Positions 1 through 53,208 of a DNA stretch of 64,000 nt are shown one piece after another. Below the pieces are notes generated by a model. It searched no databases. It had not been told where the DNA came from and saw nothing but the letters and a program-made list of their open reading frames with translations. The first letter of the stretch is position 1, and the number at the start of each line of letters is the position of its first letter. Made by a program: the position numbers and the translations under genes. Source of the stretch: a virus. Lineage: Duplodnaviria > Heunggongvirae > Uroviricota > Caudoviricetes. The DNA is taken from positions 21,367-85,366 of IMG/VR virus record IMGVR_UViG_3300017992_000015. One strand, written 5' to 3'.

Positions 1-803
1 GTGGGCGAGATACCGCTGTAGAGTTCGAGGAACTCCACCTCGTAGCGGTTTTCGGCAACGCCACCTCCGCCGACGGTTGTCGCGCCCATTTGTCTGGGTG
101 CGCCGCCTTGGGGTTGCGCTTGGGTGCCGGCTTGGTGGAACTGGACGAACATGCCAGCGTCAAGACTGGTAAGGTCGGGCCAGCGCCAGTTACCTTGGTC
201 ATCGCGTTCGCCGAGCTTGTCCATCAGGGCTTGGCCTGCGGACTGGCTCATCAGCAGCACGACCGGTTGATGGTCGGGCAAGCACCCGCGCGGCGGGTTC
301 TGCGGCTGCGATTTGTGTTCCATCAGGATGCCTTGCATGATGTAGCCATCCTTCGGAGAACTCAGAGGTGCGGCGCGACCCGCGCCGCCGAAGACAAGCG
401 GATTCCAGCTGGGATGCCCGGTGCCGGCTTTCACGGCTTGCTGAATGCTGCGATACAGCATCCAGACGGGGTTCTGCTGGTCGTCCAGCGTGCCGTCCCG
501 CGGATCCTTCATAACGAAGGTAATCCCGGGGTTACCGATGCTGAATGCCATGTCGTATCGACGGATCCAGTCACCGAAGTCCCGATCTTCATCACTCAGC
601 CGGAACGGGTCCCAGGCTGCGAGGTTCTCGGGATCCTTACCCGGGAACGGCCGGAAGATAGTCCGGGTGCCGTTCCAGGTTGGCCGGTAGATTTGACAAC
701 CGGCGTTGTCGTTCAGGATATGCATACCCTGAATTCCACGTTGCGAGGCTTGACCCTCGTTGCGCATACGATAGCGGCCAGCGGCCGCACCTTGGCGTGA
801 CAT
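1..803 (-). CDS. Hypothetical protein, partial (3' end runs off window); start ATG at 803
   Basis: Reverse-strand ORF not in track because it has no in-window stop; AGGAGGT 7 nt upstream of ATG (plus 811-816 'cctcct'); protein-like translation MSRQGAAAGRYRMRNEGQ...; the + ORF 90..800 is its antisense shadow. Confidence 0.5.
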   Translation of the reverse strand, partial: MSRQGAAAGRYRMRNEGQASQRGIQGMHILNDNAGCQIYRPTWNGTRTIFRPFPGKDPENLAAWDPFRLSDEDRDFGDWIRRYDMAFSIGNPGITFVMKDPRDGTLDDQQNPVWMLYRSIQQAVKAGTGHPSWNPLVFGGAGRAAPLSSPKDGYIMQGILMEHKSQPQNPPRGCLPDHQPVVLLMSQSAGQALMDKLGERDDQGNWRWPDLTSLDAGMFVQFHQAGTQAQPQGGAPRQMGATTVGGGGVAENRYEVEFLELYSGISP

Positions 804-927
804 TCGTCACCTCCTACAAAAACGGGTTACAAGTAAACAGTCAGTCGGTTTAGAAGTTGCAAGTCAATCGGTTTAACGGTTGATACCCTGATTATCCCAC
901 ACGGGCGGTGCCATTTCAAGCACCCCG

Positions 928-3900
928 CTAGATATAATCGGGACTAATTCCCAACCGCTCACACTCCTCTTCTGTCAACTTCAAGCCCCATCGCGTGAAC
1001 ACGTCCTGATCCAACCCAAATCGGTAGATCGGACTGTCCGCATACGGAGCTCCGTCTAAGTCACATGCCTGGAAGGACACTTTGTCGACCATGCACTCTG
1101 GCAGGATCTCGTTGTGTACCACGTCCAAGCTGCGACATGGGACCTCCAGCACGATCGCATCGTGGATCTGGAGGACAATCTTGTACCCAAGTTCCTCTTT
1201 ACGAGGATGGTTGTGTAGCCAATATAGCGCCGTCGAAACGGCATCGGCTACCATACTCTGAAACGGAAAATTCAGTGCCTGGCGCTCCAATTCGCCCATC
1301 GCCGCTCGATCAGACGTGCTGATGAATCGACGATACCTACCGAAACAATTTCTAAGCCATCCCGGGTTAGCGACGCGGGCACGGAGTGCCTCTTGCAACG
1401 CTGGAATACCCGGATAGAGCTCGAAGATCGTGTCGATAATGCTTTGCGCTTCCGCAACGGTGATAGGAGCATTTTCTTCCTGGCACTGCCTGGCGCACGC
1501 CTCCGCGGTGCGTCCATAGCCTACGCCGAAGATGATGTTTTTCGCAGCAACGCGCTTGCCCTTCTGCTTGATCGATGCGAGTCCAGCTTTGCTAGCCTCG
1601 CAGTCAAGTTGAAAGGAAGTCACAGCGATATTTGAGTGGATATCATATTGCTGCGGATCGCCATCGGGCAGGTTTGCGCGTAAGCAGTGATCCAACATTT
1701 GCGCATCGCGAGCCATCACCGCCATCCCCATAAGTTCCGCGCCCTTATAGTCTGACTCTACAAGGACGGTAGGTTCGGCATAGCCGGGGTCGGTGTTGCT
1801 GACGATAAATGACCGGATTGGCCAGCGGTATTGGTCACCCAGGATTCTCGAGTAATCGTCTTCGCGACGCTTACTGATATTCTGTAATGGCGGCCTCGCA
1901 CTTGACGCACGTCCAGTTTCCTTCACTTGTTGGAACGAACTTCTCACACGCTGGTCATGGCATATGTACTTAGCGATGCCACCGCCGTAGATCCGTCGGC
2001 CATTGCTGTCGAGTTCGATCTCCGTCGATTTTGCCTTGTACTTAGGCGGACGGAATACGGACTTCAACACTTGGTCGATCAGCCTCACGTCGCGTAGCTG
2101 TAACGCCATTGGGTGTTGTAAACCCAAAATGCCACATGTCTCTTTATCTGTACTCGGCGTGTACTTCTCCTGTTCGCCTCTGGACATCACCCAGCCCCAC
2201 GGCTTACCTTTGCCAGTGGACTTGATGGGCTCCAGGTTGAGCGTCATGGCGCCCGCTGGACGCACGCTGAGCCGCTCTCCTGTGTCCTTGTCACGGCGCG
2301 TAGAGTAGCGCTCGCCGAACAGGAATTCCACACACTGCTGTGAACTTCGAGGGTTGAACGCCGGCCAGTTGATGTCCTCCTGAAGCTTCTTCAGCTTCTG
2401 GGCGCTCACTTCGATGAATTGGTCGGTGAGCTCATCAATGCGTTCGGGGTCGATCTTGACGCCGATCGTGCCCATCTCGTTGAAGGCCGGGAATGCCATC
2501 ATGGACAGATGGAACGGGATCCAGCAGTCGTTGCCGTAGCGATCGCCGTTCAGCAGGTTGCAATGCCTGTCCATCAGCTGACGTGTGTAGGCAGCATCTT
2601 TGCCGCCGTAGGGCAGTAGGACCTCGTCGGGGCACTCTCCGTACCCTTCGAGCTCCTCGTCCTTCATCTTCCGCTCCTTGAGGTACGCCTTCTTCCACTC
2701 GCCCAGCGCAACGTCCCAGCGAGGCGCACCGCACAACCGAGAGGCCATGACTTCCAGCTTGAAGTCACCGGTCTCGTTGTAGGCGTGGTGGGCCAAGCCG
2801 ATGTCGAAGCCGCCTGCGTAGTTACCGCCGCGGATCTCGTCGACCGTGGGCGGTACCTTGAAGCGGTGGGCGATGTTCAGGCCGTTGTGTTCAAGCCACG
2901 GAAGGTCAGCAGCGAAGAAGCTGCCGCCAATCTGGACGTCGTCACGATCGAGCAGCCGGTTAAGGTGATCGATCGCGCGCGAAATGCCTGGTCGAAACGC
3001 AGTACCACCGCCCTGCCCTCGCAGGACGATGACGGCGGCATACTTGCCGGTGTGGCTTACCTGTATCGTACGGAGGTACGACCCCGGCTCGCCGGGATGC
3101 TGGCCGTGCCACTCACCGTCAACTGCTATCTTTTTCAACCCAGGGCGAGAAAGGACGTAGTCAACGTACTCCTTCAACTCCCTTTCCTTGTACATGTATT
3201 GGATCGTGATGTTGTCGTTCTCTGCGCTCGTAAACTCCTCGCCACGGATCAACTGGATGAAGTTCCGCAGGGTGGCTTCGAACGCCGGGTACAACTCCGT
3301 GGTACGCAGCACAGCCGCCGGATGCGTGATGGCCATCACCTTGGAGGTATGCAGGTCATCAGGCTCGCCATACTCTTGCAGCATCTCAGTGCGCTCGACG
3401 TAACGGCCCACCATGGTATTCACTGTGTTGCCCGGGATGACCGCTTTGGTCGCTTCGGCCCCGAGGCACAGGATATAGTCAGGCCGGTACAGCCGGATCT
3501 CCTGGTGCAGCAGCGGAAGACAGTCCTTGATCCACGCCTGCGGCAACGCGCCGCTCTGCGGATTGACGTTCATCCAACGCACCAGGTTACACACGTACCA
3601 ATCATTGAGCTCGGCATCACTCAGACCGAGCGCGGTCAACGTGTCCTTCAGTTGCCGGCCAGACGGGCCGACGAAGTTGCGTCCCTCGCCTATCTCTTCG
3701 AGGCCAGGGTGCTTTCCAACAACCATCACACGCGGTCGTCCCCGCAGCTCCTCGTTCTCGAGGTACTTGGGACCTTCGGCATGATCGCCCCAGAGATGCC
3801 CGGGCAGGATGCGCACCGTCTCGGTACGCCCTTTCACCTTGATGGGCATGTGGAGTTCGTTCGAGTACAGCGCCTTCAGATACAGGCACTGCAGCTTGAA

Positions 3901-4113: not shown

Positions 4114-5224
4114 TCTGTAGTCCTAACAGATCAACATTCTGGTTTACGGAACTTTGCCATACAAGATCCCAGAAGCGATCCTGATCCATGTCAGCTGGAT
4201 CGCAACCGTCTGGGAGTTTCACGACCACCGTCGGCATACTGCCCAGCTGCTGCTGGATACGCTCGACTCGGTCCATTGCGTCAGGGTCGAGAGCGATCAC
4301 GGCTGCTTTCCAGTTCTGCGCGATCAGCTCTGCCTGCTGCGGGGATATGTGCTTGCCGAGGAGCGAGATCGCCCCCTGGCCGACAGCCCACACGTCGGTG
4401 ACGCCCTCGGTTATGACGCAGTACGGATACGCCCTGGCTATGTCGAAGCCGTACAACATGAGTCGCCGGTTGATGCCGGGACAGTTGTAGTACTTGGCGG
4501 TGGTCTTCCAGTCTGCTTCATATGGCGGGCGGGCTTGCCAGCCAACCATATCGCCGTTCATCACGATCGGGATCACCAACCGTCCGAACGCCATCGGGAA
4601 GCGCGCCGAACCACTCTCGCAGTACGTCACGCCGTAGCGTGGGCCAACTGCCGCGGGGTCAAAGCCGCGGGTCGCCAGGTACTGCCATGCGTGGTGCTCC
4701 GGTCGCAGCTGGTCCACCCGCAAGCAGCGGCCAGGCCAGTCGACGAGTCCGAGCGACGCCATCGGCACAGTGTGGAACTGCAGCTTGACGGCGGGCGCGT
4801 GTAGCTCCCGGCCGATACCGCCGTAGACCCAGGTCTGCAACTGTTTGGTGTTCGCCGGGTTCTCTTCGCAATGCTCGTTGTAGCACACCCACGCCCACCA
4901 AAACCGATCGTTCGGCTTCAGTTTGGTCTGCGGGTCATCCTCGTCGAGGCCGACGCCCCAGCGATGGCTGATCCACAGTCGGTGTTTGGTATCCACCGCG
5001 CGCTTCTGCTCGCAGAACGGGCAGCAGACGCGATAATACTCTCCGCCGAGGGTGTCGTACTTGAAGCCGCTGCCGTCATACGTGTAGTTCCCGTAGATCG
5101 GCTCGCCTTGCTTGGCGATGATAACATCGCCGAAGCGTTTCTGGAGCTTCTCGTAAAGGAACGGGTTGATGACGTGTGCGCCTGCGGCATCGTTGCCCAG
5201 GGTCACGCCGGTAACCGATTTCAT
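4103..5224 (-). CDS. DNA primase (zinc-ribbon + TOPRIM, T7 gp4/DnaG-like primase domain)
   Basis: CCPFCEQ...CYNEHC zinc ribbon; TOPRIM motifs CVITEGVTDVWA and ALDPDAMD; 11-nt overlap with polymerase start. Confidence 0.8.
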   Translation of the reverse strand: MKSVTGVTLGNDAAGAHVINPFLYEKLQKRFGDVIIAKQGEPIYGNYTYDGSGFKYDTLGGEYYRVCCPFCEQKRAVDTKHRLWISHRWGVGLDEDDPQTKLKPNDRFWWAWVCYNEHCEENPANTKQLQTWVYGGIGRELHAPAVKLQFHTVPMASLGLVDWPGRCLRVDQLRPEHHAWQYLATRGFDPAAVGPRYGVTYCESGSARFPMAFGRLVIPIVMNGDMVGWQARPPYEADWKTTAKYYNCPGINRRLMLYGFDIARAYPYCVITEGVTDVWAVGQGAISLLGKHISPQQAELIAQNWKAAVIALDPDAMDRVERIQQQLGSMPTVVVKLPDGCDPADMDQDRFWDLVWQSSVNQNVDLLGLQNDS

Positions 5225-13808: not shown

Positions 13809-14423
13809 TCACTTCTTCTTATCGTGTGTGACACGGGCGGTCTCCACCTTTCTAGGAGTCCGGGCGTCGGGATCACTGGGCTCGAAGTTGCCCAGCTCTT
13901 CGACAACCTCCTCCCATAATGTCTCCATCTTTGCGTGCGATGCGCACGCAATGATGCGATCTCGGTAATGGTCAACGCGGTCCTTGAGTTCAGCAAGAGC
14001 GCGTCCAATGGGATGCTCTGCCCGGAGTTTTTCGAACTCGTATTGAAGCTGGCAGCGCATTGGCTGTCGGCAGTTCTCCGGGTAGCGTGCGAATTCCTGG
14101 CGTTCATGGCGGTTACGGCTGTAGTAACGCCTATCGTCCTCGACCCAGGGTGCGTCATCTGACAGCAGGCCGTGGATTTTCTCATAGATCTCGGTGTCGA
14201 GCTGCTCTAGTTGTCTGCCTAGCTCGCGCCGCTGACGCCGAATTTCCATTTGTTTATTCAGAAGTTCCGCGACGCCGAACTGCTGTTCGACGACCTTAGC
14301 TGCCTTGTTGCGGAGCCGTGGCTCCCACGCTGGCGCGTCGGCCGTCAGTTGTGCAGTCGCTCGATCGTGGATCTCCTGGAGTCTCGTCTTGAAATGTTCC
14401 TTCTCGGTGACCGTTAGGGACAC
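13809..14423 (-). CDS. Hypothetical protein (204 aa; GTG start with AAGGAG SD)
   Basis: Track ORF 13809..14570 trimmed: AAGGAG 7 nt upstream of in-frame GTG at 14423, placing the start about 125 nt downstream of the sbcD stop. Confidence 0.5.
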   Translation of the reverse strand: MSLTVTEKEHFKTRLQEIHDRATAQLTADAPAWEPRLRNKAAKVVEQQFGVAELLNKQMEIRRQRRELGRQLEQLDTEIYEKIHGLLSDDAPWVEDDRRYYSRNRHERQEFARYPENCRQPMRCQLQYEFEKLRAEHPIGRALAELKDRVDHYRDRIIACASHAKMETLWEEVVEELGNFEPSDPDARTPRKVETARVTHDKKK

Positions 14424-15513
14424 TAACTTGCTCCTTGAAGATTGAAAGTAGCTCGGTTTGGATGTCTTTGCTACGGTAGAGCCGCACGGCATCTGCGCAT
14501 GCGCGAGGGTCATCTCCGTAAAACTCGTTGATGCATCCGACCATGCCCGCACCAAGTACAGCCTGGACACGCCGCTCGGCGTCGACCGTCTGTGCCTGGT
14601 CTTCGACAGGGATCATCGTTGTAAATAGGTGGGCCGATGAGCCGATCCTACCTTCCAACCGCGGCTTGGCGTCGGGAATATCCGAACGGTACCAAACGCG
14701 GATGATGTTTGTTGCGACGGCGGGCGGCACGCCAACCTGCGGGATCTTCGCCGGGGAGGCGTCCCACTCGTCGAGGAATTGCTCGAGTTGCGCTTCCTCG
14801 TACAGGCGTGCCTCATAGTAGCCGCGCGATCGCAATTTGTATGGCGTGACGGTGAGATCAGAGTTCAGCATGAACACGAACTTCTCGTGATCCTCGCCGA
14901 TGTTCTGCATGCAGAGCGGTCCCGGTGACAGGATCTTCTGCGTCCCACGCGTCTCGAATTTCGCTTTGTGGAAATCTCCCGTGGCAATGAACTGCGTCGG
15001 CGCCCAGTGGAACCAGGCATCGCCGCGCTCCTCGCCAAGGTAATCCTTCCAAACCTGATGAGTCGCCAAAATGTCAGCGTTTGTAGGCACGGCACGCAGC
15101 GCCTCCTCAACCTCGACCGGATTGCGATAATCCAGGCCGTACATGAGCAGGTTGCCGTTGTCCAACTCCACCATCCGCTCGTCGATATGCTGTGACCAGC
15201 TGTGGATCGACTTCATCAGCGTCGGTGAAGACCGCTCGTGCTGTCCTTGAATGAACTGCACTTGGATATTGTTCTCCTGGAAATCAGCCATAGCTCGTCG
15301 CATGAGCATCAGAGAATCTGACTGCTGCAGCCGCTGGTCGAACAGGTCGCCCAGCAGGATCAGACAATCAGGCATTTGCTCGGCCGCAATGTCGCATACC
15401 TGTCGGACGCCCCACGCGGCGTCGCCGCGCAGCGTGTCACGTCGGTACCACACGCGGTCGTACTTACGAAGATGCCAGTCAGCCGATACCAGTGCTAGCG
15501 GTCTCGCTGCCAT
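14296..15513 (-). CDS. sbcD: SbcD/Mre11-like nuclease (calcineurin-like metallophosphoesterase)
   Basis: Motifs SADWHL (D-x-H), LLGDLFD (GD-x-D), ATGDFH (GNH[DE]-like); 405 aa. Confidence 0.8.
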   Translation of the reverse strand: MAARPLALVSADWHLRKYDRVWYRRDTLRGDAAWGVRQVCDIAAEQMPDCLILLGDLFDQRLQQSDSLMLMRRAMADFQENNIQVQFIQGQHERSSPTLMKSIHSWSQHIDERMVELDNGNLLMYGLDYRNPVEVEEALRAVPTNADILATHQVWKDYLGEERGDAWFHWAPTQFIATGDFHKAKFETRGTQKILSPGPLCMQNIGEDHEKFVFMLNSDLTVTPYKLRSRGYYEARLYEEAQLEQFLDEWDASPAKIPQVGVPPAVATNIIRVWYRSDIPDAKPRLEGRIGSSAHLFTTMIPVEDQAQTVDAERRVQAVLGAGMVGCINEFYGDDPRACADAVRLYRSKDIQTELLSIFKEQVSVPNGHREGTFQDETPGDPRSSDCTTDGRRASVGATAPQQGS

Positions 15514-15514
15514 T

Positions 15515-15530
15515 TTATTCTCCTGAATAA
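15515..15530. repeat. Conserved inverted-repeat element, copy 1 (TTATTCTCCTGAATAA + GATTCAG flank); lies in the 20-nt gap between stop of 15534..15908 and sbcD ATG; RNA form is a hairpin with AGGA loop containing the SD
   Basis: Minus-strand reading GAATCTTATTCAGGAGAATAAAATG; same element at 39438, 22845, 50423. Confidence 0.6.
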
Positions 15531-15533
15531 GAT

Positions 15534-15908
15534 TCAGGCCGAGTGCTCGATCAGCTTTTCAGCCAATGTAAAGAACTGCTCCGGGCCTACTATCGGGTCA
15601 TCGAAATCGATCACGTCGGTGTCTCGGAGCCGATGGACGCGTCCATCTACAGGGTCCCGGACTAAGACGAGGATTTCACCATCCAATAGCATAAGCTTTA
15701 GTCGTTCCGAAAAACAGTCCCTCAGGTCAACAAGCCTGCGAGCCTTCTCGAACAGCACGTCGATGGTCAGGTCATCCCAATATCCCATCCCGCGTGCGTC
15801 CTTTTCAGCCGCCGTAACGGCTCCGATCATCAGCAACGCCTGCGGCATGGCAGCGCAGTCGCGCGCCGCGGCGTCGTTGTACATCTGCATGAAGTGAAAT
15901 TGTCCCAT
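15534..15908 (-). CDS. Hypothetical protein (124 aa; start at Met65 of track ORF)
   Basis: GGAG SD 7 nt upstream of ATG at 15908; upstream part of track ORF is compositionally non-coding and would overlap csrA. Confidence 0.45.
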   Translation of the reverse strand: MGQFHFMQMYNDAAARDCAAMPQALLMIGAVTAAEKDARGMGYWDDLTIDVLFEKARRLVDLRDCFSERLKLMLLDGEILVLVRDPVDGRVHRLRDTDVIDFDDPIVGPEQFFTLAEKLIEHSA

Positions 15909-15977
15909 TTGGTTGCTCCGGGGGTCCGAAGGTGATAAACTGGGCGTATTGTTACTGCAAGCACAAGGAGGTCTACC

Positions 15978-16151
15978 ATGTTGGTCCTGTCCCGCAAAGA
16001 AGGTGAGCAGATCAAGATTGGCGACGACATCACCGTCACGGTCATCCGCACTGGTCGTGATCGGATCCGCCTCGGTGTCGACGCCCCGCCGGATGTACAA
16101 ATCCTGCGAGAGGAGCTCACCTCTGCTGAAGCGCCTGCCGAATCTCGGTAA
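15978..16151 (+). CDS. csrA: Carbon storage regulator CsrA/RsmA homologue (57 aa) - missed by ORF track (<60 aa)
   Basis: MLVLSRKEGEQIKIGDDITVTVIRTGRDRIRLGVDAPPDVQILREEL matches CsrA family (MLILTRKVGESI.IGDDI.ITVL....QVRIGI.AP.DV.V.REEI); AAGGAGG SD 6 nt upstream of ATG; lone plus-strand gene among minus genes. Confidence 0.8.
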   Translation: MLVLSRKEGEQIKIGDDITVTVIRTGRDRIRLGVDAPPDVQILREELTSAEAPAESR

Positions 16152-16422
16152 ACAGCTTCTTCTTAGCGGCGATGGCCAGCTTCTGCGCTTGAGACGTGCT
16201 CACACAGTCGACGGAGTCTTGTGACCCTGTGAGCTGTCCCTTCGCAGAAGCTGGCCACCAGTCCGCCAAATGCTTGTCGCCATATTTGAACTGCCAGTGT
16301 CGTTGGAAGTCGCTGAGCGTTACGGTGATCTCGTCGAAGGCGAGTTCAGTCCGCAGCGTCTCCAGCTCCTCCAGCGCTGTCTTCAGTCTCTCCTGGCGCA
16401 GTGCTCTCTTTGAGGGCCTCAT
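16117..16422 (-). CDS. Hypothetical protein (101 aa); 3' end overlaps csrA convergently by ~35 nt
   Basis: Protein-like ORF; convergent overlap unusual, stop may be read through or ORF marginal. Confidence 0.35.
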   Translation of the reverse strand: MRPSKRALRQERLKTALEELETLRTELAFDEITVTLSDFQRHWQFKYGDKHLADWWPASAKGQLTGSQDSVDCVSTSQAQKLAIAAKKKLFTEIRQALQQR

Positions 16423-17857
16423 CTTCTTCCCGCAGTTGGGTACTACTGACGTCGACCTCTAGCTCGGCCAACCGCAGCTCGCCGCCCCATTCAGGCAGCA
16501 CCGCAGCTTCCGGTAGCAGGTCTTCCCTATCCTTGTAGTCCGGCCCTTTTACCATGATATCGGGCTGCAACGCCTGATACTCTGGTACTGCGTTATCGCC
16601 GTCGAACAGCAGCACCGCATCCACCAACGGATGCGCCGCCAGGCTGAGCGAACGGGCTATCTGACTGTGTTGCGGTCGGCGCTTGATGCGCTCCGCCGAT
16701 TCGTCAGTGTTCACGAGCACCGCCAGGAAGTCACAATGCTCCCTGGCCTGCCGTAGCAGCGAGGTGTGCCCGTCGTGGACGCCGTCGAACACGCCGTTGG
16801 CAACCCCGAAGATTTCGCCGGCGACGGCGACGGATTGCCGCAGGAGACGCAGCTCGTCGAGGGTCACGACCTTTCGATCGAGCCCGAGCGACAGCGTCAC
16901 GCGTTGGTTGAGGCGGTGCAGCGGGATGGGCATAGCACCAATGATCTCGCAGCATAGCGAACCGGACACGTTTGCAAAGCGCGTAGCCGTGCGTGCGTTC
17001 ATTCCGGTGGCAATCCCGTAGGTCATCGCCGACGCCACAGCATCTCCGCAACCGCACGTATCGATCGCAGCGGCGGGCAGCGCTTGCAGCGGGAACCGTT
17101 CCTGCCCGTGGGGCGGAACCAGCACCATTCCGTGGCTGCCGAGCGTGACGAGGACGTCACAATCGAACTTGTTGGCCAGGAAGTCAGCTGCTTCGACCGG
17201 ATCGGTTGCGCGATCTGCATACCCGCAGGCCGCTGCCATCCGCATTGCCTCGTCGGCGTTCGGCGTGAGTAGCGTAGCGCCCTGATAGCTCTCTGTGTGC
17301 GCCGGATCAGGGTCCACGATCACGGGGACGTTGTGATCCTCGCCGTAGAGCAGCACGGACCCGATGATGTCGGGCGTGCACACCCCCTTGTTGTAGTCGC
17401 TGATAAGTATCGCCAAAGGCGGCTTCTCTGCCACAGCGCTAAAAAATAAGGACGCAGTCGTAGACTCGAACGACCCTGTGTAAGGATCGTCCGCGTCAAA
17501 CCGTGCTACAAGGCGATTGTTGGCATAGACGCGGGTTTTTACGGGGGTGCTGTAGTTAGCGTATTTGCCAACCTTCAGCTGCAGGTTGGGAGGCATCGGT
17601 GCCTTGAGATACTCTTCGCCGGCGTCGTCGTCTCCGACCATGCCGACGAACGTCGTTGGGAGGGCCAGATGGGCCAAGCAGTTTGCGGCATTGCCGCCGC
17701 CACCGGGCGCCCAGAACTGTCCCGTGACGCCGATTAGAGGCACCGGCGCCGTACGGTCAAGTCGTCTGGGTTTGCCCACGAAGTAGCGATCGACAATGAC
17801 GGGACCAATGACGACGACGTAATCGTCAGAGGCCAGCTCTTCCGTCGAATTTGTCAT
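16346..17857 (-). CDS. hldE: HldE/RfaE-like bifunctional D-glycero-beta-D-manno-heptose-7-phosphate kinase / heptose-1-phosphate adenylyltransferase
   Basis: N-terminal pfkB kinase domain (VVVIGPVIVDRYFVG..APVP...PGGGGNAANCLAHLA, GCGDAVASA) and C-terminal cytidylyltransferase-fold domain (NGVFDGVHDGHTSLL...LAVLVNTD) colinear with E. coli HldE. Confidence 0.75.
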   Translation of the reverse strand: MTNSTEELASDDYVVVIGPVIVDRYFVGKPRRLDRTAPVPLIGVTGQFWAPGGGGNAANCLAHLALPTTFVGMVGDDDAGEEYLKAPMPPNLQLKVGKYANYSTPVKTRVYANNRLVARFDADDPYTGSFESTTASLFFSAVAEKPPLAILISDYNKGVCTPDIIGSVLLYGEDHNVPVIVDPDPAHTESYQGATLLTPNADEAMRMAAACGYADRATDPVEAADFLANKFDCDVLVTLGSHGMVLVPPHGQERFPLQALPAAAIDTCGCGDAVASAMTYGIATGMNARTATRFANVSGSLCCEIIGAMPIPLHRLNQRVTLSLGLDRKVVTLDELRLLRQSVAVAGEIFGVANGVFDGVHDGHTSLLRQAREHCDFLAVLVNTDESAERIKRRPQHSQIARSLSLAAHPLVDAVLLFDGDNAVPEYQALQPDIMVKGPDYKDREDLLPEAAVLPEWGGELRLAELEVDVSSTQLREEDEALKESTAPGETEDSAGGAGDAAD

Positions 17858-24336: not shown

Positions 24337-24765
24337 TCAGTTTGCCCTCACTTCAGGTAGTAGTAATCGGTTTGCCCACTGATCATCCAGGATACGCATC
24401 CAGGGAGCGAGCAGTATGTTAGAAGGACTGTGCTTCTTCTTCCGAAGCTTCCCTTTTACATCAACCTCGCAGATCACAAGGTCATCGATGTTTCGGAACC
24501 GGTTCGAGAAGCGCAGTATGTCCTCGTAGGTGGGCATGACGTGGAATCCCGACGTGTAGTGCGTCGCTTTCCGTTTGTCACCGTCCCACGCAATCTTCTC
24601 TTCCGCCCTGTACCAAAGGTCGAGGTGCAGAAGCCGGCTTCCCCGTACGCCGTGGAACAGCGTTGCAGGGAGTCCGTCGCGGTCGCGCAGCATTCGCCAG
24701 GCCCTAGTCGCCGACATCTCCAGGGAACCCCGGGAAGAATATCTCGATTTCGACTTTGGCCGCAC
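24337..24765 (-). CDS. Hypothetical protein (142 aa)
   Basis: 0-nt junction with upstream gene. Confidence 0.45.
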   Translation of the reverse strand: MRPKSKSRYSSRGSLEMSATRAWRMLRDRDGLPATLFHGVRGSRLLHLDLWYRAEEKIAWDGDKRKATHYTSGFHVMPTYEDILRFSNRFRNIDDLVICEVDVKGKLRKKKHSPSNILLAPWMRILDDQWANRLLLPEVRAN

Positions 24766-25129
24766 TTGGCGAGTCGCTGGCGTGTATCAGGTTCTTTTCG
24801 CGGACAGCGCCGAAGTCACCACGGATGGTGCCTGCAGCGGGTGCCGTGAAGCTGCCAACAGCAGACCGTACGATCGTGATCGTGTCGTCGGGCGCGTGCG
24901 GCGCGTGCGCCACACGGGCCTCGATCGGGCCGCTGGTCATAAATTCTTGGATGCGAGGCAGGTAGGGCTCGCCCTTGAATTTTGCGTACAACTCCTCGCA
25001 GTGGCGGGGGAGCATGATCAACTCTTTCACCCGCAGGAAGCGGATGCCCCGATCCTCGAGCCTGGTGAGGACGCGCCCCACCAGGCCCCGTTTGAGCGTA
25101 TCGGGTTTAAGCAGTACCAGCGTCTCCAT
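24704..25129 (-). CDS. ndk: Nucleoside diphosphate kinase
   Basis: EFMTSGPI identical to E. coli Ndk; active-site NLIHASDS (NIIHGSDS consensus); LLKPD...RGLVG N-terminal motif. Confidence 0.8.
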   Translation of the reverse strand: METLVLLKPDTLKRGLVGRVLTRLEDRGIRFLRVKELIMLPRHCEELYAKFKGEPYLPRIQEFMTSGPIEARVAHAPHAPDDTITIVRSAVGSFTAPAAGTIRGDFGAVREKNLIHASDSPSAAKVEIEIFFPGFPGDVGD

Positions 25130-25877
25130 CGATTTGCTCTTTCAAGACGTGATTGTGGATGATATTTTCGGCTTTGATGATCAACTGCCGAACACGTTCG
25201 CGGGTGATTCCGTAAACTTTACCGATCTCCCAAAGCTTGTCGCCGAGATAGCGACGCCGCAGTATGTCGACTTCACGCTCCGTCAACTTCTCGAACGCCT
25301 CGTAGACCATATCGGCTTGGTCCTCGCTCTCGACGTCGGCAACGAAGTCGCGCAGCGTCTCGTCTTCAATCATCTCGTACACGAATATCCCGGGATTTCG
25401 CCTATTGCCCGTGCCCACGCGTTTATGCAACGACACGTAGTCTGCAAACAGCTCCGGACAGTCTTTAGTCCAGTCCGGCCGCTTGACACCCTTTTCGTCC
25501 CAGCGGGGCGGGTAGTATACGAGGCGCCTATGGCACTTTTTGTACCATGAGATTGCGGCATGGATCGAGAACCAAGCAGCGGTTACGAATCGGTTGCCCG
25601 TTTCTGGTCGCCAGCGCTCGACTGCCTTCATGAGGCCGATCACGGCCTCCTGGAAGAGATCGTCGACGGAGAAGTGGGGATCGTTGTACGCTGCGCGCCA
25701 GGCCTGTTGAAAGGCCAGCCTGTAGCAACCAGCAATCCCGCGGTTCCGCGCGTCGTCGTCCCCTGCCTTACCCCTCTTAATGAGGGCCTCCATCTCCTCG
25801 ACTTCCATCAGTTTGCCGTGTCGCTGCAGTAAGGCTGTCGCCCAGTCCTGCTGCGCATGCGCACATTTTGTTTCCAT
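25107..25877 (-). CDS. Sigma-70 family RNA polymerase sigma factor (regions 2 and 4; start uncertain, Met25 used)
   Basis: Region 2 DLFQEAVIGLMKAVERW...FVTAAWFSIHAAI; region 4 HTH ITRERVRQLIIKAENII. Confidence 0.7.
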   Translation of the reverse strand: METKCAHAQQDWATALLQRHGKLMEVEEMEALIKRGKAGDDDARNRGIAGCYRLAFQQAWRAAYNDPHFSVDDLFQEAVIGLMKAVERWRPETGNRFVTAAWFSIHAAISWYKKCHRRLVYYPPRWDEKGVKRPDWTKDCPELFADYVSLHKRVGTGNRRNPGIFVYEMIEDETLRDFVADVESEDQADMVYEAFEKLTEREVDILRRRYLGDKLWEIGKVYGITRERVRQLIIKAENIIHNHVLKEQIDGDAGTA

Positions 25878-25927
25878 TAACAAAATTGGTCCTCCCCGGA
25901 TCCCGAAAGAACGGTATATTTGACGCC

Positions 25928-26800
25928 ATGAAACTATCACGACGGGCATTCATAGCGGCGTCAGCCGGCAGCGTACTGGCGGGACCAATGTACGCTGCCG
26001 GCGACGATCGCTCCAATGAGGCTGCCCGTGAACCGCTGTGGACCTACGCGCCGGTTGTCAGAGCGGTAGACGACACACGGTTGGGGCAGGTATTGGCGGA
26101 CATTGATTCGCGGCTGCCCGCAACGGGCCTGACAAGCTCCGCGACTTACCGTGACTCAGATCTGGGCACGTGGGCGCATGAAGCGACCCATGGTGTGAAC
26201 TCGCTCATGAGGAACGAGCATGGTGCCGGCACGGGTGTGGAAAACGCACTCTATTGTTTGAACGGCAGGACCGCGCTCATCGAAGAGCCGCGGCCCTGCA
26301 CTATCAGGGATGCTGCCCGGTATGTCCCAACCGGACTCAGATCGCGAATGTACGCGCAGTACATGATCGGCAGAACTCGCCAATGGAATCAGATCCCCCT
26401 CTACATCCTAGACGAGTGGGTCGCTTACCTGAACGGCGCGACGCATAACGTGTGGATGGCGAAGAATGGTGGTTCCATCGGCGACGGTGCTGGCGACCTG
26501 CTTTTCACAGCAGAGTCAGCAATCAACGCACTGGCGATTGTCTGTCATGTACAACAAGAGATTCAGGCGGGCCGCGTGTCCTACAACGACACCCAGCTGC
26601 GCCATGCCTTCGCGTTCAATTGGTCCAGGATGATGACACTATTTGCCGAGGCAAAACCCGTCAGTCAGCTCTTTATGGACCCGATAGCGTACTATCGGAA
26701 GTTCTCAGAGGGCCGTGACGGTGACGCACTGCGACGGTGGTGTCGCACACACCTGGGAGCAGCCTGGTCTTCAGAAGTTATGTGGCTTGTGGCCACATGA
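25928..26800 (+). CDS. Putative Tat-secreted protein (start at Met21 MKLSRRAFIAAS)
   Basis: Twin-arginine motif SRRAFIA + hydrophobic stretch + AAG cleavage-like site; 290-aa plus-strand ORF divergent from sigma factor gene. Confidence 0.45.
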   Translation: MKLSRRAFIAASAGSVLAGPMYAAGDDRSNEAAREPLWTYAPVVRAVDDTRLGQVLADIDSRLPATGLTSSATYRDSDLGTWAHEATHGVNSLMRNEHGAGTGVENALYCLNGRTALIEEPRPCTIRDAARYVPTGLRSRMYAQYMIGRTRQWNQIPLYILDEWVAYLNGATHNVWMAKNGGSIGDGAGDLLFTAESAINALAIVCHVQQEIQAGRVSYNDTQLRHAFAFNWSRMMTLFAEAKPVSQLFMDPIAYYRKFSEGRDGDALRRWCRTHLGAAWSSEVMWLVAT

Positions 26801-33382: not shown

Positions 33383-35462
33383 TGAACTCCGCTTCGTTGA
33401 CGACACGAACGCCCAGGTCCTGGGCCTTCTTCAGTTTGCTGCCGGCTTTTTCGCCGGCGACGAGCATGTCGGTCTTCGCCGAGACCGCGCTGGCGACTGT
33501 ACCGCCGTGTTGCACGATCGTCTCCTTGATGCTTTCGCGAGAGTACCCGACCAGTTTCCCGGTCGCACAGATCTTCATACCGGCGAGCGGCTTCGGAGAT
33601 CCGTCGTCTACTTCGGGCACCGGGTCGTTGACGCCCATGTTGACGCCGTAGTCCCGGAGGCGCTTCAGCAGCTTCAGGTTTTTCTCGCTGTGCATCCACG
33701 TCCAGATCGATCGAGCGGCGGCTTCGCCAACCCCCTCAATCTGGGTATAGTCGTCGATCGACCACAAGGACACCATCACTTGGAAGGGGTCGGCGGGTTC
33801 CTTCAGCTCGGCGCCAGCAGCGCTAGCAGCCTTGCAGATGGCCTCCGACATGGTCCTTCCGACGTGCTTGATGTTCAAAGACGCCAATAATCGCCAGGAA
33901 GGCCGCTCACGCGCCGTTGCGAGGGCTTCGAAGAGCTTGTCGGCTTTCTTCTCGCCCATGCGTGCAAGCCTCAGAACGCTGTCTCTGCGATGCTCAAGCG
34001 TGAAGAGGTCCGAGAGGTCCTCAACCAGCTCTGCCTCCGCCAATTGGGTGGCTAGGGTCTCCCCCAAACCATCTATATCTAGGCGGGACCGGTCAGCGGC
34101 CGATCGGAGCAGGGCGGCGATCTGTGCGGGGCACGAATCACCTGAGCAGCGCAGGAACGGACCATCCTCGATGGCGTCGCTGCCGCAGGACGGGCAGGTA
34201 GCGGGCGGCAGGAACGGCGCGACCGGTCCGGTGCGCTTCTCCTTGACCACACGTACGACGTGCGGAATGATCTTGCCGGCCTTTTCCATGACGATCGAGT
34301 CACCGTGGGCGATGCCCAGGCGCAAGACTTCGTGCCAGTTGTGCAGCGACGCCTTGCCGACCATCGTCTCAGCGATCTCCACCGGTTTGCAGTAAACCAC
34401 CGGCGTCAGCGTGCCCTGCTTGCCTACCTGTACGTCGAAGCGCTCGACCTCGGTTACGGCCTCGTACTTCTCCCACTTGTAGGCCAGCGCCCAGCTCACG
34501 TGCTTCTTGGACTCTTGGCCCATGGCTTCACGATCGCTGAACTTGTCCAGCTTCAGGACGATCCCGTCGACCGGAATGCTCAGTTCTGGCAGCATGGCAA
34601 CCATCTCTGCGACGGTCTTCAGCGCCTTATCCATCGGGGCGGGCAGGCCATAGTGATCTGTGATCGGCATCCCGCAAAGATGAAAGGCAAACAGCGTCTC
34701 GAAGTACGACTCGATATCGACGTCGCCTTCGTACTCACACTTGCCGATGCCGTGCGCCATAAAACGTACACGCCGCTCGTGACAGTCGGCCGGATCGACG
34801 CTACGGATAGCGCCGGACGTGGCGTTGCGGGAGTTGGCGAACGTCTCCTCACCAGCGTTGTTGCGCGCACAGTTGACCTGCGTGAAGTCATCGTGCGTGA
34901 TGAACGCTTCGCCACGGATCTCCAAGAGCTTCGGCAACGGCTTGGGATTCCCCATCACATTGCCTTCCTCGTCGTAGAGACGGTCCAGCTTGAGAGGGAC
35001 GCCGCGCATTGCCTTGGCAGCGTGCGTGATGTCGTCGCCGACTGCACCGTCGCCGCGGGTTATGGCATGGGTGAGTACGCCGTCCTCATAGATCAGATTG
35101 ACAGCGCAACCGTCAATCTTCCATTCGGGCGTCCAGAGCGGCTCGTGGCCGAGCTTCTTCACCACACGCTGATGAAACTTCTTGACCTCATCGAGGTCGA
35201 AGCAGTTGTCGATAGAAAACATGAGCGACGGGTGCTCCATGGACTCGAGGCCCTCAACAGGAGCGCCGCCCACACGTTGGGTCGGGCTATCTGGCAGCGC
35301 CAGATCCGGGAATTCCTGCTCTAGTGCAACCAGTTCCTTGAGGAGCTCGTCGAACACCCTATCCGGGATCGCTGGTTCACCATAGCAATAGTACAACATG
35401 TTGTGCCGATCCACGTCCGCTGACAGTTCAGCGATTCTGGCGGCAGCCGCTTTCTTGTTCAT
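33339..35462 (-). CDS. ligA: NAD+-dependent DNA ligase (LigA) with C-terminal BRCT domain
   Basis: Adenylation motif KIDGCAV, OB/Zn/HhH regions, BRCT ICATGKL...VNEAEF; AGGAGG SD 6 nt upstream of ATG at 35462. Confidence 0.85.
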   Translation of the reverse strand: MNKKAAAARIAELSADVDRHNMLYYCYGEPAIPDRVFDELLKELVALEQEFPDLALPDSPTQRVGGAPVEGLESMEHPSLMFSIDNCFDLDEVKKFHQRVVKKLGHEPLWTPEWKIDGCAVNLIYEDGVLTHAITRGDGAVGDDITHAAKAMRGVPLKLDRLYDEEGNVMGNPKPLPKLLEIRGEAFITHDDFTQVNCARNNAGEETFANSRNATSGAIRSVDPADCHERRVRFMAHGIGKCEYEGDVDIESYFETLFAFHLCGMPITDHYGLPAPMDKALKTVAEMVAMLPELSIPVDGIVLKLDKFSDREAMGQESKKHVSWALAYKWEKYEAVTEVERFDVQVGKQGTLTPVVYCKPVEIAETMVGKASLHNWHEVLRLGIAHGDSIVMEKAGKIIPHVVRVVKEKRTGPVAPFLPPATCPSCGSDAIEDGPFLRCSGDSCPAQIAALLRSAADRSRLDIDGLGETLATQLAEAELVEDLSDLFTLEHRRDSVLRLARMGEKKADKLFEALATARERPSWRLLASLNIKHVGRTMSEAICKAASAAGAELKEPADPFQVMVSLWSIDDYTQIEGVGEAAARSIWTWMHSEKNLKLLKRLRDYGVNMGVNDPVPEVDDGSPKPLAGMKICATGKLVGYSRESIKETIVQHGGTVASAVSAKTDMLVAGEKAGSKLKKAQDLGVRVVNEAEFNDLISVEQQESASK

Positions 35463-50095: not shown

Positions 50096-50097
50096 AG

Positions 50098-50170
50098 AAG
50101 CCCCGGCAGGACTCGAACCTAGCAATACGGGAACCAAAATCCCGTGTGTTACCGATTACACCACAGGGCT
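50098..50170 (-). tRNA. tRNA-Gln (anticodon TTG)
   Basis: 73-nt cloverleaf: 7-bp acceptor AGCCCTG/CGGGGCT, anticodon stem CGGGA/TCCCG with loop TTTTGGT, T-loop TTCGAGT. Confidence 0.7.
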
Positions 50171-50410
50171 TTCCGTGCGATCGAGCCGCACGCCTCGTGG
50201 ATTCCGCTCGTCGGACGGCGGATCCGGCTCCGGTTCGGGTTTCCGGAGCAGCTCGTTAAGATCGACCATCGTGGTCGCCGTCGAAACGACGACGCCATTC
50301 ACGTAAAGGTCGAGAACCAAGTCAAGCAAGCCGTTGTCACGATCGAAGTGGCTCAGCGTGACCTGCAGGTTGCGTGCGCACCACTGGCGCAGAGCTTCCT
50401 CGAAATCCAT
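50156..50410 (-). CDS. Small hypothetical protein (84 aa); C-terminal 15 nt overlap tRNA-Gln
   Basis: ATG at 50410 preceded by GGAG and by conserved element copy 4. Confidence 0.35.
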   Translation of the reverse strand: MDFEEALRQWCARNLQVTLSHFDRDNGLLDLVLDLYVNGVVVSTATTMVDLNELLRKPEPEPDPPSDERNPRGVRLDRTESPVV

Positions 50411-50422
50411 CGGTCTCCAATC

Positions 50423-50438
50423 TTATTGACGTGAATAA
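50423..50438. repeat. Conserved inverted-repeat element, copy 4 (TTATTGACGTGAATAA) 12 nt upstream of ATG of 50156..50410
   Basis: Minus-strand reading ATTTTATTCACGTCAATAAGATTGGAGACCGATG; flanks match copy 2. Confidence 0.5.
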
Positions 50439-50877
50439 AATCATGCGTACCATGGACCACCCCGACCGTTGCGACACATAGCCGTGGTATGGTGGTCACT
50501 GTTGGCGGACCAGCGACGACGCAATTCAATCCCGCTGGCTACTCCCGCAACCTATGCACCGCGGCGCTCTTGACGGACCCGTCCAGCTAATCCCGACTCC
50601 TCGCGGAATTGGTTTCACCTACCTAGGGCGGCAACCGCTCCCGAAGAACGGCCGGCTCTCCCGTACCTACATAGCCCGTACGCATGTGATTTGTGCGCTT
50701 AGGTGGTATCAACCCGTTGCCACGGCTTTAACACCCACCTCTATTGCTCCCAGCGTTGGGCAAGCGTTCTTGCCGGAGTCAATAACTCGTTCATCTGCCA
50801 TCCTCTCCCAATGCGCGCCGAGAGGCCTGGTGCGATGCGCGATCGCATCTAAACAGACGGTGAACAAGCTGCGCAAG

Positions 50878-50950
50878 TGACCCGTGGGGGAATCGAACCC
50901 ACCCTTACCGGATCGAAAGTCCGGTGTCATAACCGATAGACCAACGGGCC
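50878..50950 (-). tRNA. tRNA-Glu (anticodon TTC)
   Basis: 73-nt cloverleaf: acceptor GGCCCGT/ACGGGTC, anticodon stem CCGGA/TCCGG loop CTTTCGA, T-loop TTCGATT. Confidence 0.7.
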
Positions 50951-51145
50951 ATTTAGGAGGTAAGTGATTAGGCCTAGCGCGCGCCATCCTATACCTCCAT
51001 TTTAGTCCTCAGACCTGACTTTGCCTCGCAGCGCACGTCATCTGAGCGACAACGACAGATGGATTGCACAGTCCTTGCTCATCGCCCTGCGCCGCTAAGC
51101 GCATAAACGGGCTCCCGCAGACTTCCCAACCGCCGCTTGTGCTTC

Positions 51146-52060
51146 CTATCGCTTCTGCGGCGCAGAGGCCTGAACCTCCATCGCCTTTTGCAGCGTCGTG
51201 AGCGCCTGACGATCCGCACTCGCCTCGACGGCCTTCTGCGAAATCTCTTTCGCGTCCGTCTGTGCGTCGCGTGCGGCGTTCTCGGCAGCTTCCAGTTGAT
51301 CCTGCAGGCTGCGGATCGTCGCTTCGAGCGCCTGGATCTGCTGGTGCGCCAGCGCCAGTTTGCCCTCGGCGTCCTTCTTGAGGATCGTCCGCTCATGGCC
51401 GAACGCCTGTTGAGCTTTCGTCTCGGCTGCCTCCGTCGCAGCAGCGACAGCAGCCTCCAGCTTAGCCGGGAAGGCGGCAATCTCTTCCTCCTTCTCCGAC
51501 ACCGCAGCCTCACGCGCTTCGACAGCCTCGATCTTGTCCGACATCTGCCGGTTCACGTCTTCCATCCGAAAGCGTTCTTGGCGCTGACGTTCGGTGACGC
51601 TGGCGTTGAATTCCTCAAGCGCACGCTTCTCGCGTTGCTCGCGCTGGTACTGTGCCTGTTCGGATTCGCGGGTCAGCAACTGCAATCGTGCGGCGTCCTG
51701 TTCGGCCCACTCGAGTGCCCTCGCTTCCGCAGCCTTTTCGTGAGCCGTGAGGCGCTCCTGTTCGCGCTCCTCGAGCTCGGCCAGCGTTTCCGCTTGTACT
51801 TCGATATCGTGGAGCTCTTTCAACGCATCTTTCTGCACGTCGATGGCAGTGTTGAGTTGTCCGAGCTCCTCAATCTTGGACACCATCGTGGCACCAAGAC
51901 CTGCCAGCGTACCTTGCATGCTGGCTTGTAAATCACCGATCTGATCAAGCGTCTGCTTGACGTCGGCTTCTGAGACGGCGGCCAGTGCCGCCACGGGGTC
52001 GACTTTTCGTCGAGCTTTTGCCAAGAGTCTTTCTCCTATGGCACAACAATGTGGCGCCAC
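51146..52060 (-). CDS. Long coiled-coil protein (Ala/Glu/Gln-rich, 304 aa), possible scaffold/structural role
   Basis: Heptad-like AEAR/ELEE/QLEA repeats throughout; shadow ORFs on both strands. Confidence 0.5.
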   Translation of the reverse strand: MAPHCCAIGERLLAKARRKVDPVAALAAVSEADVKQTLDQIGDLQASMQGTLAGLGATMVSKIEELGQLNTAIDVQKDALKELHDIEVQAETLAELEEREQERLTAHEKAAEARALEWAEQDAARLQLLTRESEQAQYQREQREKRALEEFNASVTERQRQERFRMEDVNRQMSDKIEAVEAREAAVSEKEEEIAAFPAKLEAAVAAATEAAETKAQQAFGHERTILKKDAEGKLALAHQQIQALEATIRSLQDQLEAAENAARDAQTDAKEISQKAVEASADRQALTTLQKAMEVQASAPQKR

Positions 52061-52268
52061 CGCGGCGCCGTTATTTCATGGTCGGTACGGGACATCTCGC
52101 TCCCGCATCAGTCTTTACGGCGATCAGCACGGGTCCATCCGGATTCCGGGTCTGCTCCCGGGCCGGCCCGCTTCAGTGCGCAGGCGGTACCCGCTACATG
52201 CGGGCCCATACCGTTGCACTATGCTGACTGCAGCTTTCGCTCGCATGATCCTTGATATACCGACCAAT

Positions 52269-52342
52269 TTGCGGAGGCGGGATTCGAACCCGCGACTTCG
52301 AGCTTATGAGGCTCGCGTGCTAGGCCTCTGCACCACTCCGCG
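52269..52342 (-). tRNA. tRNA-Met (anticodon CAT) with initiator-like C1xA72 mismatch and A73
   Basis: CGCGGAGTGGTGCAGAGGCCTAGCACGCGAGCCTCATAAGCTCGAAGTCGCGGGTTCGAATCCCGCCTCCGCAA; similar to E. coli tRNA-fMet acceptor and T-arm. Confidence 0.7.
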
Positions 52343-52423
52343 TTATTCCTATTGTACGTTACGACAGCTACCGGCATAATTAGGTTAGAAACTGCACTGT
52401 GTATTCTAACCATGGAGGGACCA

Positions 52424-52750
52424 ATGCCAGCTAAAGATCCCAAGAAATACGCCTCAAAACACTATCAAGCAAACAAGGCGCAGTATAAGGCGCGCTGCGC
52501 ACGCGCACGACAGCGCAACCGCGAGTTTGTCGAGGAGGTCAAAAAACGTAGCGTATGCCTACATTGCGGCTGCGACGACTTTCGGTGCTTATGCTTCCAC
52601 CACGAGGATCCAGCTGTAAAAACGCACGAGGTTAGTGAGATGATCAATCGCTCATTCTCTATCGCGAGGATCCAAGTAGAGATTGACAAATGCATTGTCC
52701 TGTGCGCCAACTGTCACCGAATCGTACACTACGAGCATGGTTATAGGTAG
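52424..52750 (+). CDS. HNH homing-type endonuclease (paralogue of 53273..53620)
   Basis: CLHCGC...CFHHEDP...LCANCHRIVH HNH motif; GGAGGG SD 4 nt upstream of ATG at 52424. Confidence 0.7.
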   Translation: MPAKDPKKYASKHYQANKAQYKARCARARQRNREFVEEVKKRSVCLHCGCDDFRCLCFHHEDPAVKTHEVSEMINRSFSIARIQVEIDKCIVLCANCHRIVHYEHGYR

Positions 52751-52874
52751 TCCGCCGAACCGGTCAGTCCGGTTGAGCAGTCGGTACTGCCGGTCGGGGC
52801 TACCAGTTTTCTCAAGGGGGCACAATCCCTTGAGTTCCCACGTGGGGAAACGCGTTTCTGTATCAAAAGCGCGT

Positions 52875-52940
52875 CGGTATCGAAGGGGAATCGAACCCCA
52901 ACAGGCCTGGTCGTGGCCCTTTCGGGCGCCAACCGATACC
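52875..52940 (-). other. tRNA-like 66-nt element (acceptor GGTATCG/CGATACC + canonical T-arm GGGGTTCGATTCCCC, but short GNRA-capped hairpin replaces D/anticodon arms)
   Basis: GGTATCGGTTGGCGCCCGAAAGGGCCACGACCAGGCCTGTTGGGGTTCGATTCCCCTTCGATACCG. Confidence 0.3.
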
Positions 52941-53208
52941 TCGGCGCTCGTTGTTCGACCTGCCAGGTGCACCTGACTATTGCCCGGCCGCGGCTAGACA
53001 CCTTCGCCACACGCTGCACTAACGCCAACCGTTTGTCCTTCGCATCGCGATTTATGGACTCGCGGGACGCTCCCCCATGAGGTGTCATATGGGGTGGCGA
53101 GTGCTTGTGCTGGTTCGGCTTGCTCAACCTATGGGCGTCCACAGGTTGGCCGGCGTACGATACCGTTACAGACCACCTCTGCCTTCTTGTTTACATGGTC
53201 ACCAGCAG

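Follow-up and report, generated by a model that had tools for sequence, protein, structure and literature searches.

We found that a 64,000-nucleotide (nt) segment of a phage genome, positions 21,367 to 85,366 of the IMG/VR record IMGVR_UViG_3300017992_000015 (here called the window), encodes a member of the CsrA/RsmA family on the plus strand at 15978-16151. It is likely that this csrA is a functional, independently transcribed and minimal CsrA/RsmA gene of a large uncultivated double-stranded DNA phage, the host of which probably belongs to the Planctomycetota. The product, MLVLSRKEGEQIKIGDDITVTVIRTGRDRIRLGVDAPPDVQILREELTSAEAPAESR, has 57 amino acids (aa) and, judging from its sequence, is most likely a dimeric GGA-binding translational regulator of host mRNAs and possibly of some phage mRNAs.

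Identification of csrA

An earlier note on this DNA had named the product a CsrA/RsmA homologue, and our searches bear this out. The Pfam CsrA profile PF02599 gave a highly significant family match (79.6 bits against a cut-off of 27, E = 1.6e-22), in which residues 1-49 align with profile positions 1-49 of 53. PHROG 9500, 'CsrA-like regulator', was matched with E = 1.2e-15, and RsmE, RsmA and CsrA chains in the PDB were matched with E-values of 4.7e-12 to 1.9e-08 in alignments running from residue 1 to residue 48 or 49. The RNA-binding residues L4 and R44, set beforehand as the test of the identification, are both present. In an alignment of 21 sequences, which takes in E. coli CsrA, P. fluorescens RsmE and B. 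subtilis CsrA, these two residues together with M1, L2, R6, G33, A36, P37 and E46 form the invariant columns, and the phage CsrA keeps them all. The RNA-contact residues of strands beta1 and beta5 (L2, L4, R6, R/K7, V40, V/I42, R44, E46 and I/L47) are likewise complete.

The predicted structure agrees with the family fold. The AlphaFold2 (AF2) model of the phage CsrA, built on 80 homologues, has a mean predicted local distance difference test (pLDDT) score of 83.7 and has the fold of a five-stranded beta core followed by a C-terminal helix. In this monomer model beta1 and beta5 are unassigned, as is to be expected when strands pair between dimer subunits. The top 15 Foldseek matches in the PDB were all CsrA, RsmA or RsmE, with template modelling (TM) scores of 0.55-0.75 and root-mean-square deviations (rmsd) of mostly 1.5-2.2 Å (about 1.8 Å at the highest TM scores); the nuclear magnetic resonance entry 1y00 was the rmsd outlier (6.9 Å).

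The reading frame starts at ATG 15978, ends with TAA at 16149-16151 and has a Shine-Dalgarno (SD) sequence, AAGGAGG, 6 nt before the start; its coordinates and the protein quoted for it in the note were both reproduced from the sequence. csrA is also the lone plus-strand gene of its surroundings, as had been claimed. In the public gene calls on identical contigs all other genes within 10 kb on either side are on the minus strand, and in our own open reading frame (ORF) map of the window the minus-strand block spans 928 to ~25.9 kb. The note had placed csrA between sbcD and hldE: this order is right, but the genes are not adjacent, one gene intervening on each side. It had further stated that csrA was missed by the ORF track. 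The gene was overlooked there because its 57 codons fall under a common cut-off of 60 aa, but public gene callers did call it and tagged it with PF02599 on identical metagenome contigs.

csrA is under purifying selection, with a ratio of nonsynonymous to synonymous substitution rates (dN/dS) of ~0.2. In a gapped alignment with the syntenic orthologue of the related locus L003, dN/dS was 0.23 overall and 0.17 in the core, at a dS near saturation. Two loci of the identical phage (L001 and L002) show no differences in csrA, and gene calls on no fewer than 24 contigs of the JGI, ENA and Logan assemblies include the identical protein. The GC content of csrA, overall and by codon position, agrees with that of the remainder of the phage.

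The csrA slot in related phages

A metagenome scan with SbcD alignment yielded 39 related loci, in which SbcD is 26-54% identical to that of the window; a scan of IMG/VR with SbcD as the single protein gave no match. csrA was found with the CsrA hidden Markov model in 14 of the 39 loci. In all 14 it lies just upstream of p124/sbcD, on the strand opposite to hldE, p101, p124, sbcD and sbcC, p101 and p124 being the two small genes that flank csrA in the window (Table 1). The distant csrA-bearing loci L130, L135, L146 and L149 (SbcD ~30% identical) have csrA directly divergent from sbcD. Full-length csrA orthologues with a strong SD are present in 10 distinct relatives. Among the relatives, L003/L119, from the same JGI sample as the window, is a diverged phage with full synteny and with csrA in the same slot on the opposite strand; the identities to the window are 62% for CsrA, 56% for p101, 51% for SbcD, 45% for SbcC, 36% for the HldE-like protein and 35% for p124. 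Since csrA is co-oriented with its neighbours in most of the unrelated viral contigs that carry it, reverse orientation is characteristic of the present lineage.

The junction of p101 and p124 acts like a variable site at which regulatory cargo is placed. In L120 and L124, p101 and p124 abut at a distance of ~30-45 nt with no csrA between them. In L115 the gene in place of csrA (1342-1974, plus strand) is co-oriented and encodes 210 aa with a Sigma70 region-4 domain, and its slot between p101 and p124 is equivalent to 15909-16116 of the window.

Phage lineage and probable host

The window is a segment of a phage genome. Its genes include those for a family-A DNA polymerase (PolA), a primase, a DnaB-like helicase, a second helicase, SbcC- and SbcD-like proteins, an NAD-dependent ligase (LigA) and the large terminase (TerL). 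No nucleotide-level relative was found among 50,697 GenBank phage records, and in protein searches no PolA or TerL of a cultured phage exceeded ~32% identity. Over the 20 kb compared, the ENA contig ERZ27256770 k141_2006669 (220 kb) and the window do not differ. The phage and its relatives are found on contigs of up to ~220-227 kb, including Ga0180433_10000027 (227 kb), and the window has no repeats of 25 nt or longer. It may be a jumbo phage.

The relatives of CsrA and LigA suggest that the host probably belongs to the Planctomycetota. In a genomic scan that was seeded with a family-derived peptide pattern and is therefore not unbiased, 79 of the 80 best CsrA matches were from this phylum, at 47-66% identity. 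The named CsrA matches in a protein search were only from Isosphaeraceae and Pirellulales, and all named relatives of the phage LigA were from Planctomycetaceae. Because CsrA is widespread in Planctomycetota (PMC13443453), the phage CsrA would enter an existing network.

Some features of the Planctomycete csrA loci (L033-L112) were also recorded. Several metagenome-assembled genomes hold two different csrA loci each, in heterogeneous contexts, which fits many CsrA paralogues per genome. In 14 of the loci a 100-aa ORF with no Pfam match lies directly upstream of csrA and is co-oriented with it. The commonest flanking families are MurB, metallophosphoesterase, xylose-isomerase-like TIM barrel proteins and unknowns; FliW was not among the commonest flanking genes in this shallow test.

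Putative promoter, leader and antisense layout

Since there is no plus-strand gene for ~15 kb upstream, csrA needs its own promoter. The putative sigma-70-type promoter consists of TTGCTC at 15913-15918, a 17-nt spacer and TAAACT at 15936-15941, with TG at 15933-15934 as an extended -10 element. The -35 element shares positions with the SD of p124 (15916-15919, complement), which is divergent from csrA. This proposal rests on positional conservation across relatives. In all ten distinct csrA-bearing relatives the best sigma-70-like candidate has the form TTGnnn-17(18)-TAnnnT (for example, TTGAAA-17-TAAACT in L116, TTGATT-17-TATATT in L119 and TTGAAG-18-TACAAT in L146), and the distance from the end of the candidate -10 element to the ATG is 29-36 nt in eight of the ten and 54-56 nt in two distant ones.

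The 3' ends of csrA and p101 overlap in the window, and by 11-26 nt in relatives, where the 3'-3' overlap or abutment is conserved. A scan around csrA found no intrinsic terminator between csrA and p101; its only terminator-like hits were on the plus strand at 15496-15510 and are irrelevant here. Transcription that continues leftward, from hldE/p101 into p124/sbcD, would therefore be antisense to the csrA mRNA over its full length.

The csrA leader showed no significant structure on folding (z = +1.8 in the window and +0.2 in L003). The csrA SD lies within ACAAGGAGG. This sequence includes, at 15963-15969, the ACARGGA core of the consensus obtained for CsrA by systematic evolution of ligands by exponential enrichment (SELEX), and the csrA SD is thus a possible autoregulatory site. 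The sequence A[A/C]GGA is present at the SD in 10 of 10 distinct orthologue leaders and is equally just a strong SD.

Candidate RNA targets

The GGA hairpin that had been noticed at sbcD is real and is conserved in the nine closest relatives, which have UUGUUC-(A/C)GGA-GAACAA at the sbcD start position. Across 9 relatives 88.9% of the cells are paired; there is one compensatory change, from G-C to A-U, which is in the window, and four sequences have a U.U mismatch. The covariation was not significant, the score being reached in 62 of 500 shuffles and the number of paired cells in 156 of 500. The hairpin is kept in two relatives that lack csrA, with the AGGA loop intact in L115 and the loop AUGG in L120, and two more distant csrA-bearing relatives (L121 and L126) are without it. 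We regard this hairpin as a candidate CsrA site or translational operator. Host takeover and the regulation of sbcD by the phage CsrA, both put too strongly in the earlier note, are hypotheses.

Perfect 5-bp hairpins with the SD in the loop also occur before other gene starts. That of polA is at 4114-4130 on the minus strand (UCUGU-UAGGACU-ACAGA), and similar 5-bp hairpins are at 803-820 (minus strand, gene starting at 803) and 33411-33425 (minus strand, gene starting at 33406). The polA and 803 hairpins may just as well be translational operators of another kind.

The motif ACARGGA, mostly as ACAAGGA, was observed 26 times in the window against 12.2 ± 3.6 expected from dinucleotide shuffles, in which codon effects are uncontrolled. 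Only ~5 of the sites are at true gene starts and most lie within coding sequence, so that the excess may reflect codon or amino-acid usage. Within the 64-kb window, on a phage whose contigs reach 220 kb, we found no Rfam Csr/Rsm sponge RNA and no second csrA. A complete Csr/Rsm system, with a sponge small RNA or a FliW partner nearby, was not found within the window.

Neighbouring genes and other features of the window

Table 1. Coordinates of csrA, its flanking genes and associated signals in the window
Feature	Coordinates	Strand	Remarks
SbcD-like gene	14296..15513	-	p124 lies between it and csrA
sbcD hairpin UUAUUC-AGGA-GAAUAA (candidate site)	15515..15530	-	SD in tetraloop, 1 nt before AUG 15513
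p124, conserved 124-aa gene	15534..15908	-	divergent from csrA with a 69-nt spacer; conserved in relatives
Putative sigma-70-type csrA promoter	15913..15941	+	position conserved across relatives
csrA SD, AAGGAGG	15965..15971	+	6-nt spacer TCTACC, then ATG
csrA-family coding sequence, 57 aa + stop	15978..16151	+	ORF map, Pfam, PHROG, PDB, AF2/Foldseek, dN/dS
p101, conserved 101-aa gene	16117..16422	-	convergent with csrA; 35-nt overlap with csrA (opposite strand), 77-nt overlap with the HldE-like gene (same strand)
HldE-like gene	16346..17857	-	p101 lies between it and csrA

At least 12 related loci have p101, at 31-64% identity, and the public gene callers skipped it on identical contigs. Only two homologues were found for it in a database of 5.8 billion proteins, and its AF2 model (pLDDT 54.9) was too poor for a fold search. 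p124 matched no family in library scans. We considered p101 and p124 as obligate partners of CsrA and rejected both. They occur in relatives without csrA, neither was detected in the distant csrA-bearing loci L130, L146 and L149, and p124 was undetected in several closer csrA-bearing loci. A search with PADLOC gave no match for csrA or its neighbours.

The HldE-like protein is full-length but divergent, with a PfkB kinase domain and a cytidylyltransferase-like domain; it scored 243.5 bits with NF008454, below the cut-off of 521. It is an enzyme of the ADP-heptose-pathway type, conserved at 26-44% across the clade. Provision of a nucleotide-sugar for DNA modification or for surface modification are candidate roles.

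The leftward block of ~25 kb is headed by genes for a sigma-70-family factor with regions 2 and 4 (25107-25949, minus strand) and a nucleoside diphosphate kinase (24704-25129, minus strand). Four tRNA genes, Gln-TTG, Glu-TTC and two Met-CAT, lie within 3 kb at 50097-53282 on the minus strand.

Discussion

The phage CsrA is predicted to form the usual strand-swapped dimer, and this dimer would bind GGA motifs in mRNA leaders at or near the SD, mainly repressing translation initiation. The likely promoter of csrA looks like a housekeeping type, and csrA is read against the ~25-kb leftward block, which starts with the phage sigma factor and holds replication and recombination genes. Unmodified host RNA polymerase would then probably express csrA early, with antisense read-through damping it afterwards. 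The principal targets are probably host mRNAs: the phage would add a CsrA dose under its own control to a network that relies on CsrA paralogues. The SD of csrA itself and a few hairpins at phage ribosome-binding sites (RBSs), those of sbcD and polA, may be secondary targets.

Several observations weigh against this reading. The close relatives L115, L120, L124, L125 and L127 do not have csrA. Since it is missing from several close relatives, csrA is dispensable, and it is best described as an old, often kept, dispensable occupant of a variable regulatory slot. In the AF2 model the C-terminal helix is cut to residues 45-48 and is followed by a disordered tail, and the H43 of enterobacterial CsrA is L in the phage protein. 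The NCBIfam equivalog cut-offs were narrowly missed (67.1 against 70.1 and 63.6 against 73 for TIGR00202 and NF002469). Because of these scores we do not file the phage CsrA as a housekeeping orthologue; its sequence points to a family member that is not the canonical housekeeping carbon storage regulator. The host assignment is based on the similarity of two genes only, csrA and ligA. The promoter candidate in the window matches 7 of 12 consensus positions, and a generic promoter scan around csrA, which missed the candidate at this level, reported none. As to targets, GGA-in-loop hairpins are not enriched in the window (327 observed and 328 simulated), CANGGANG is not enriched either, and there are no ANGGA clusters above chance. 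Moreover, of 555 natural CsrAs roughly one in two did not repress a heterologous target (PMC13443453), and thus similarity is no guarantee of a given activity.

A different role for the protein has to be considered. CsrA might be a phage-internal translational timer that acts, like RegA of T4, on the SD-in-loop hairpins of sbcD, polA and other genes, while antisense transcription from the replication operon shuts csrA off. T4 RegA is a small phage protein that represses translation at the ribosome-binding sites of early phage mRNAs; it is a functional analogue only and has no sequence or fold relationship to the phage CsrA. We think this explanation possible but rather unlikely. It would account for the stem-(A/C)GGA-stem hairpin at the sbcD RBS, which is kept in the nine closest relatives with one compensatory change, for the perfect SD-in-loop hairpins immediately before the AUG of polA and that of the 803 gene (minus strand), and for the position of csrA next to sbcD or p124 in every csrA-bearing relative. 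However, the sbcD hairpin survives in L115 and L120 without csrA and is absent from L121 and L126 with csrA, its covariation is not significant, four sequences carry the U.U mismatch, and GGA-loop hairpins are not in excess across the window. RBS hairpins in phage replication modules also have other known explanations, that is, autogenous operators such as that of T4 gp43 or translational coupling. The fuller version, a conserved self-contained circuit in which early CsrA delays the translation of sbcD and perhaps polA until antisense transcription driven by the phage sigma factor silences csrA, is in our estimate very unlikely.

Repression of host immunity is another role that csrA might serve. 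RsmA represses CRISPR-Cas in Serratia and other genera, and an anti-defence function, in which translation of host immunity systems such as CRISPR-Cas is repressed, was proposed for phage RsmA homologues (PMC8450108). The putative early host-type promoter would suit such a takeover gene. Nothing in the window, however, bears on this role, PADLOC matched neither csrA nor its neighbours, and csrA is lost in several relatives; we therefore judge it quite unlikely that CsrA is an anti-defence device. The very short tail and the truncated C-terminal helix might instead point to a decoy or dominant modifier, which titrates sponge RNAs or a FliW-like protein or heterodimerises with the host CsrA. The C-terminal region of CsrA is the binding site of partners, FliW for example, in certain species (PMC13443453), and core identity of up to 66% to Planctomycete CsrAs might permit heterodimers. 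This idea is purely structural speculation and is highly improbable: the RNA-binding residues are all intact, which makes direct regulation simpler, no FliW-like gene is among the commonest flanks of Planctomycete csrA, and the window has no sponge-RNA family. As for a chance ORF or a decaying non-functional remnant, the small size of 57 codons, the antisense position within an operon, the overlap with a neighbour and the absence from some relatives are what such a reading would predict. It can hardly be credited in view of the zero differences in L001 and L002 and the many contigs with the identical protein, and it is effectively refuted by the Pfam match, by an intact frame with dN/dS of ~0.2 and by full-length orthologues with strong SDs in 10 relatives. 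A functional CsrA that acts mainly on host mRNAs is the explanation that we prefer.

The phage CsrA resembles bacterial CsrA, RsmA and RsmE (1Y00, 1VPZ, 2BTI and 2JPP), with 40-49% identity over residues 1-48 and predicted TM scores of 0.72-0.75. It differs from them in that it is virus-encoded and shorter, with a helix of ~4 residues and a disordered Pro/Ala-rich tail, and no cognate sponge RNA or FliW was found near the phage csrA. Its nearest cellular relatives are the chromosomal CsrA paralogues of Planctomycetota (47-66% identity), with which it has the N-terminal MLVLSRKEGE and the APPDV motif in common. The phage copy is shorter than all 72 Planctomycete genomic homologues, the shortest of which has 59 aa and the median 68, and it has the phage's own base composition. 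Since no cellular CsrA is closer than ~66% over the core, a recent capture is not indicated. A general rule that phage CsrAs are shorter than cellular ones had little support, with medians of 65 aa for viral and 68 aa for genomic copies, and we do not adopt it.

CsrA genes of phages are already documented. By tblastn, csrA homologues were found in 82 GenBank phage records, mostly from Pseudomonas and Vibrio phages and annotated 'carbon storage regulator'. Homologues are also carried by 30 contigs in IMG/VR. Sobrero and Valverde counted 30 csrA-bearing phages among 2,517 (PMC7366521). Campa et al. described phage RsmA homologues in GenBank and IMG/VR, proposed roles in host manipulation or against CRISPR, and found that RsmA represses three CRISPR-Cas systems (PMC8450108). 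The first loss-of-function phenotype for a phage csrA dates from 2025, when knock-down of the csrA homologue of phage PTXU04 by CRISPRi-ART gave smaller plaques (PMC11879866). Because PHROG 9500, the 82 GenBank records, the surveys of 2020 and 2021 and the knock-down exist, the novelty of the gene was overstated in the earlier note.

The gene described here belongs to the same phage-borne family as the reported homologues (PHROG 9500; the Pseudomonas phages phi297, F116-like and RsmM type; Burkholderia DC1; gp28 of the E. coli phage PTXU04). It differs from the GenBank phage copies in sequence (identity of at most 53%), in its uncultivated lineage and in the probable host phylum, and from most other viral contigs in that csrA is the lone reverse-strand gene inside a replication block. 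RsmQ of the plasmid pQBR103 and CsrT of the Legionella integrative and conjugative elements are likewise CsrA paralogues on mobile elements that are able to join the host network (PMC9928087, PMC7366521), and RsmQ takes over host translation, an instance of global control by a mobile CsrA (PMC9928087). Those elements are long-term residents, whereas the present element, which brings a replisome and a sigma factor of its own, resembles a phage of the virulent type, so that the effect of its CsrA would be confined to the infection cycle.

In conclusion, the general picture of phage CsrA genes is unchanged by this study, the value of which lies in a comparative data point and in annotation, since csrA and p101 are easily overlooked through length cut-offs and overlap rules. 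A clade distant from cultured phages keeps csrA in one slot and one orientation over deep divergence, despite several losses. This is a first pointer to the Planctomycetota, which are rich in CsrA paralogues and have few described phages, as a setting for phage CsrA. The hairpin at the sbcD RBS provides one concrete candidate cis-target. If the timer circuit were true, CsrA would be a developmental timer of the phage instead of, or besides, a host-takeover factor.

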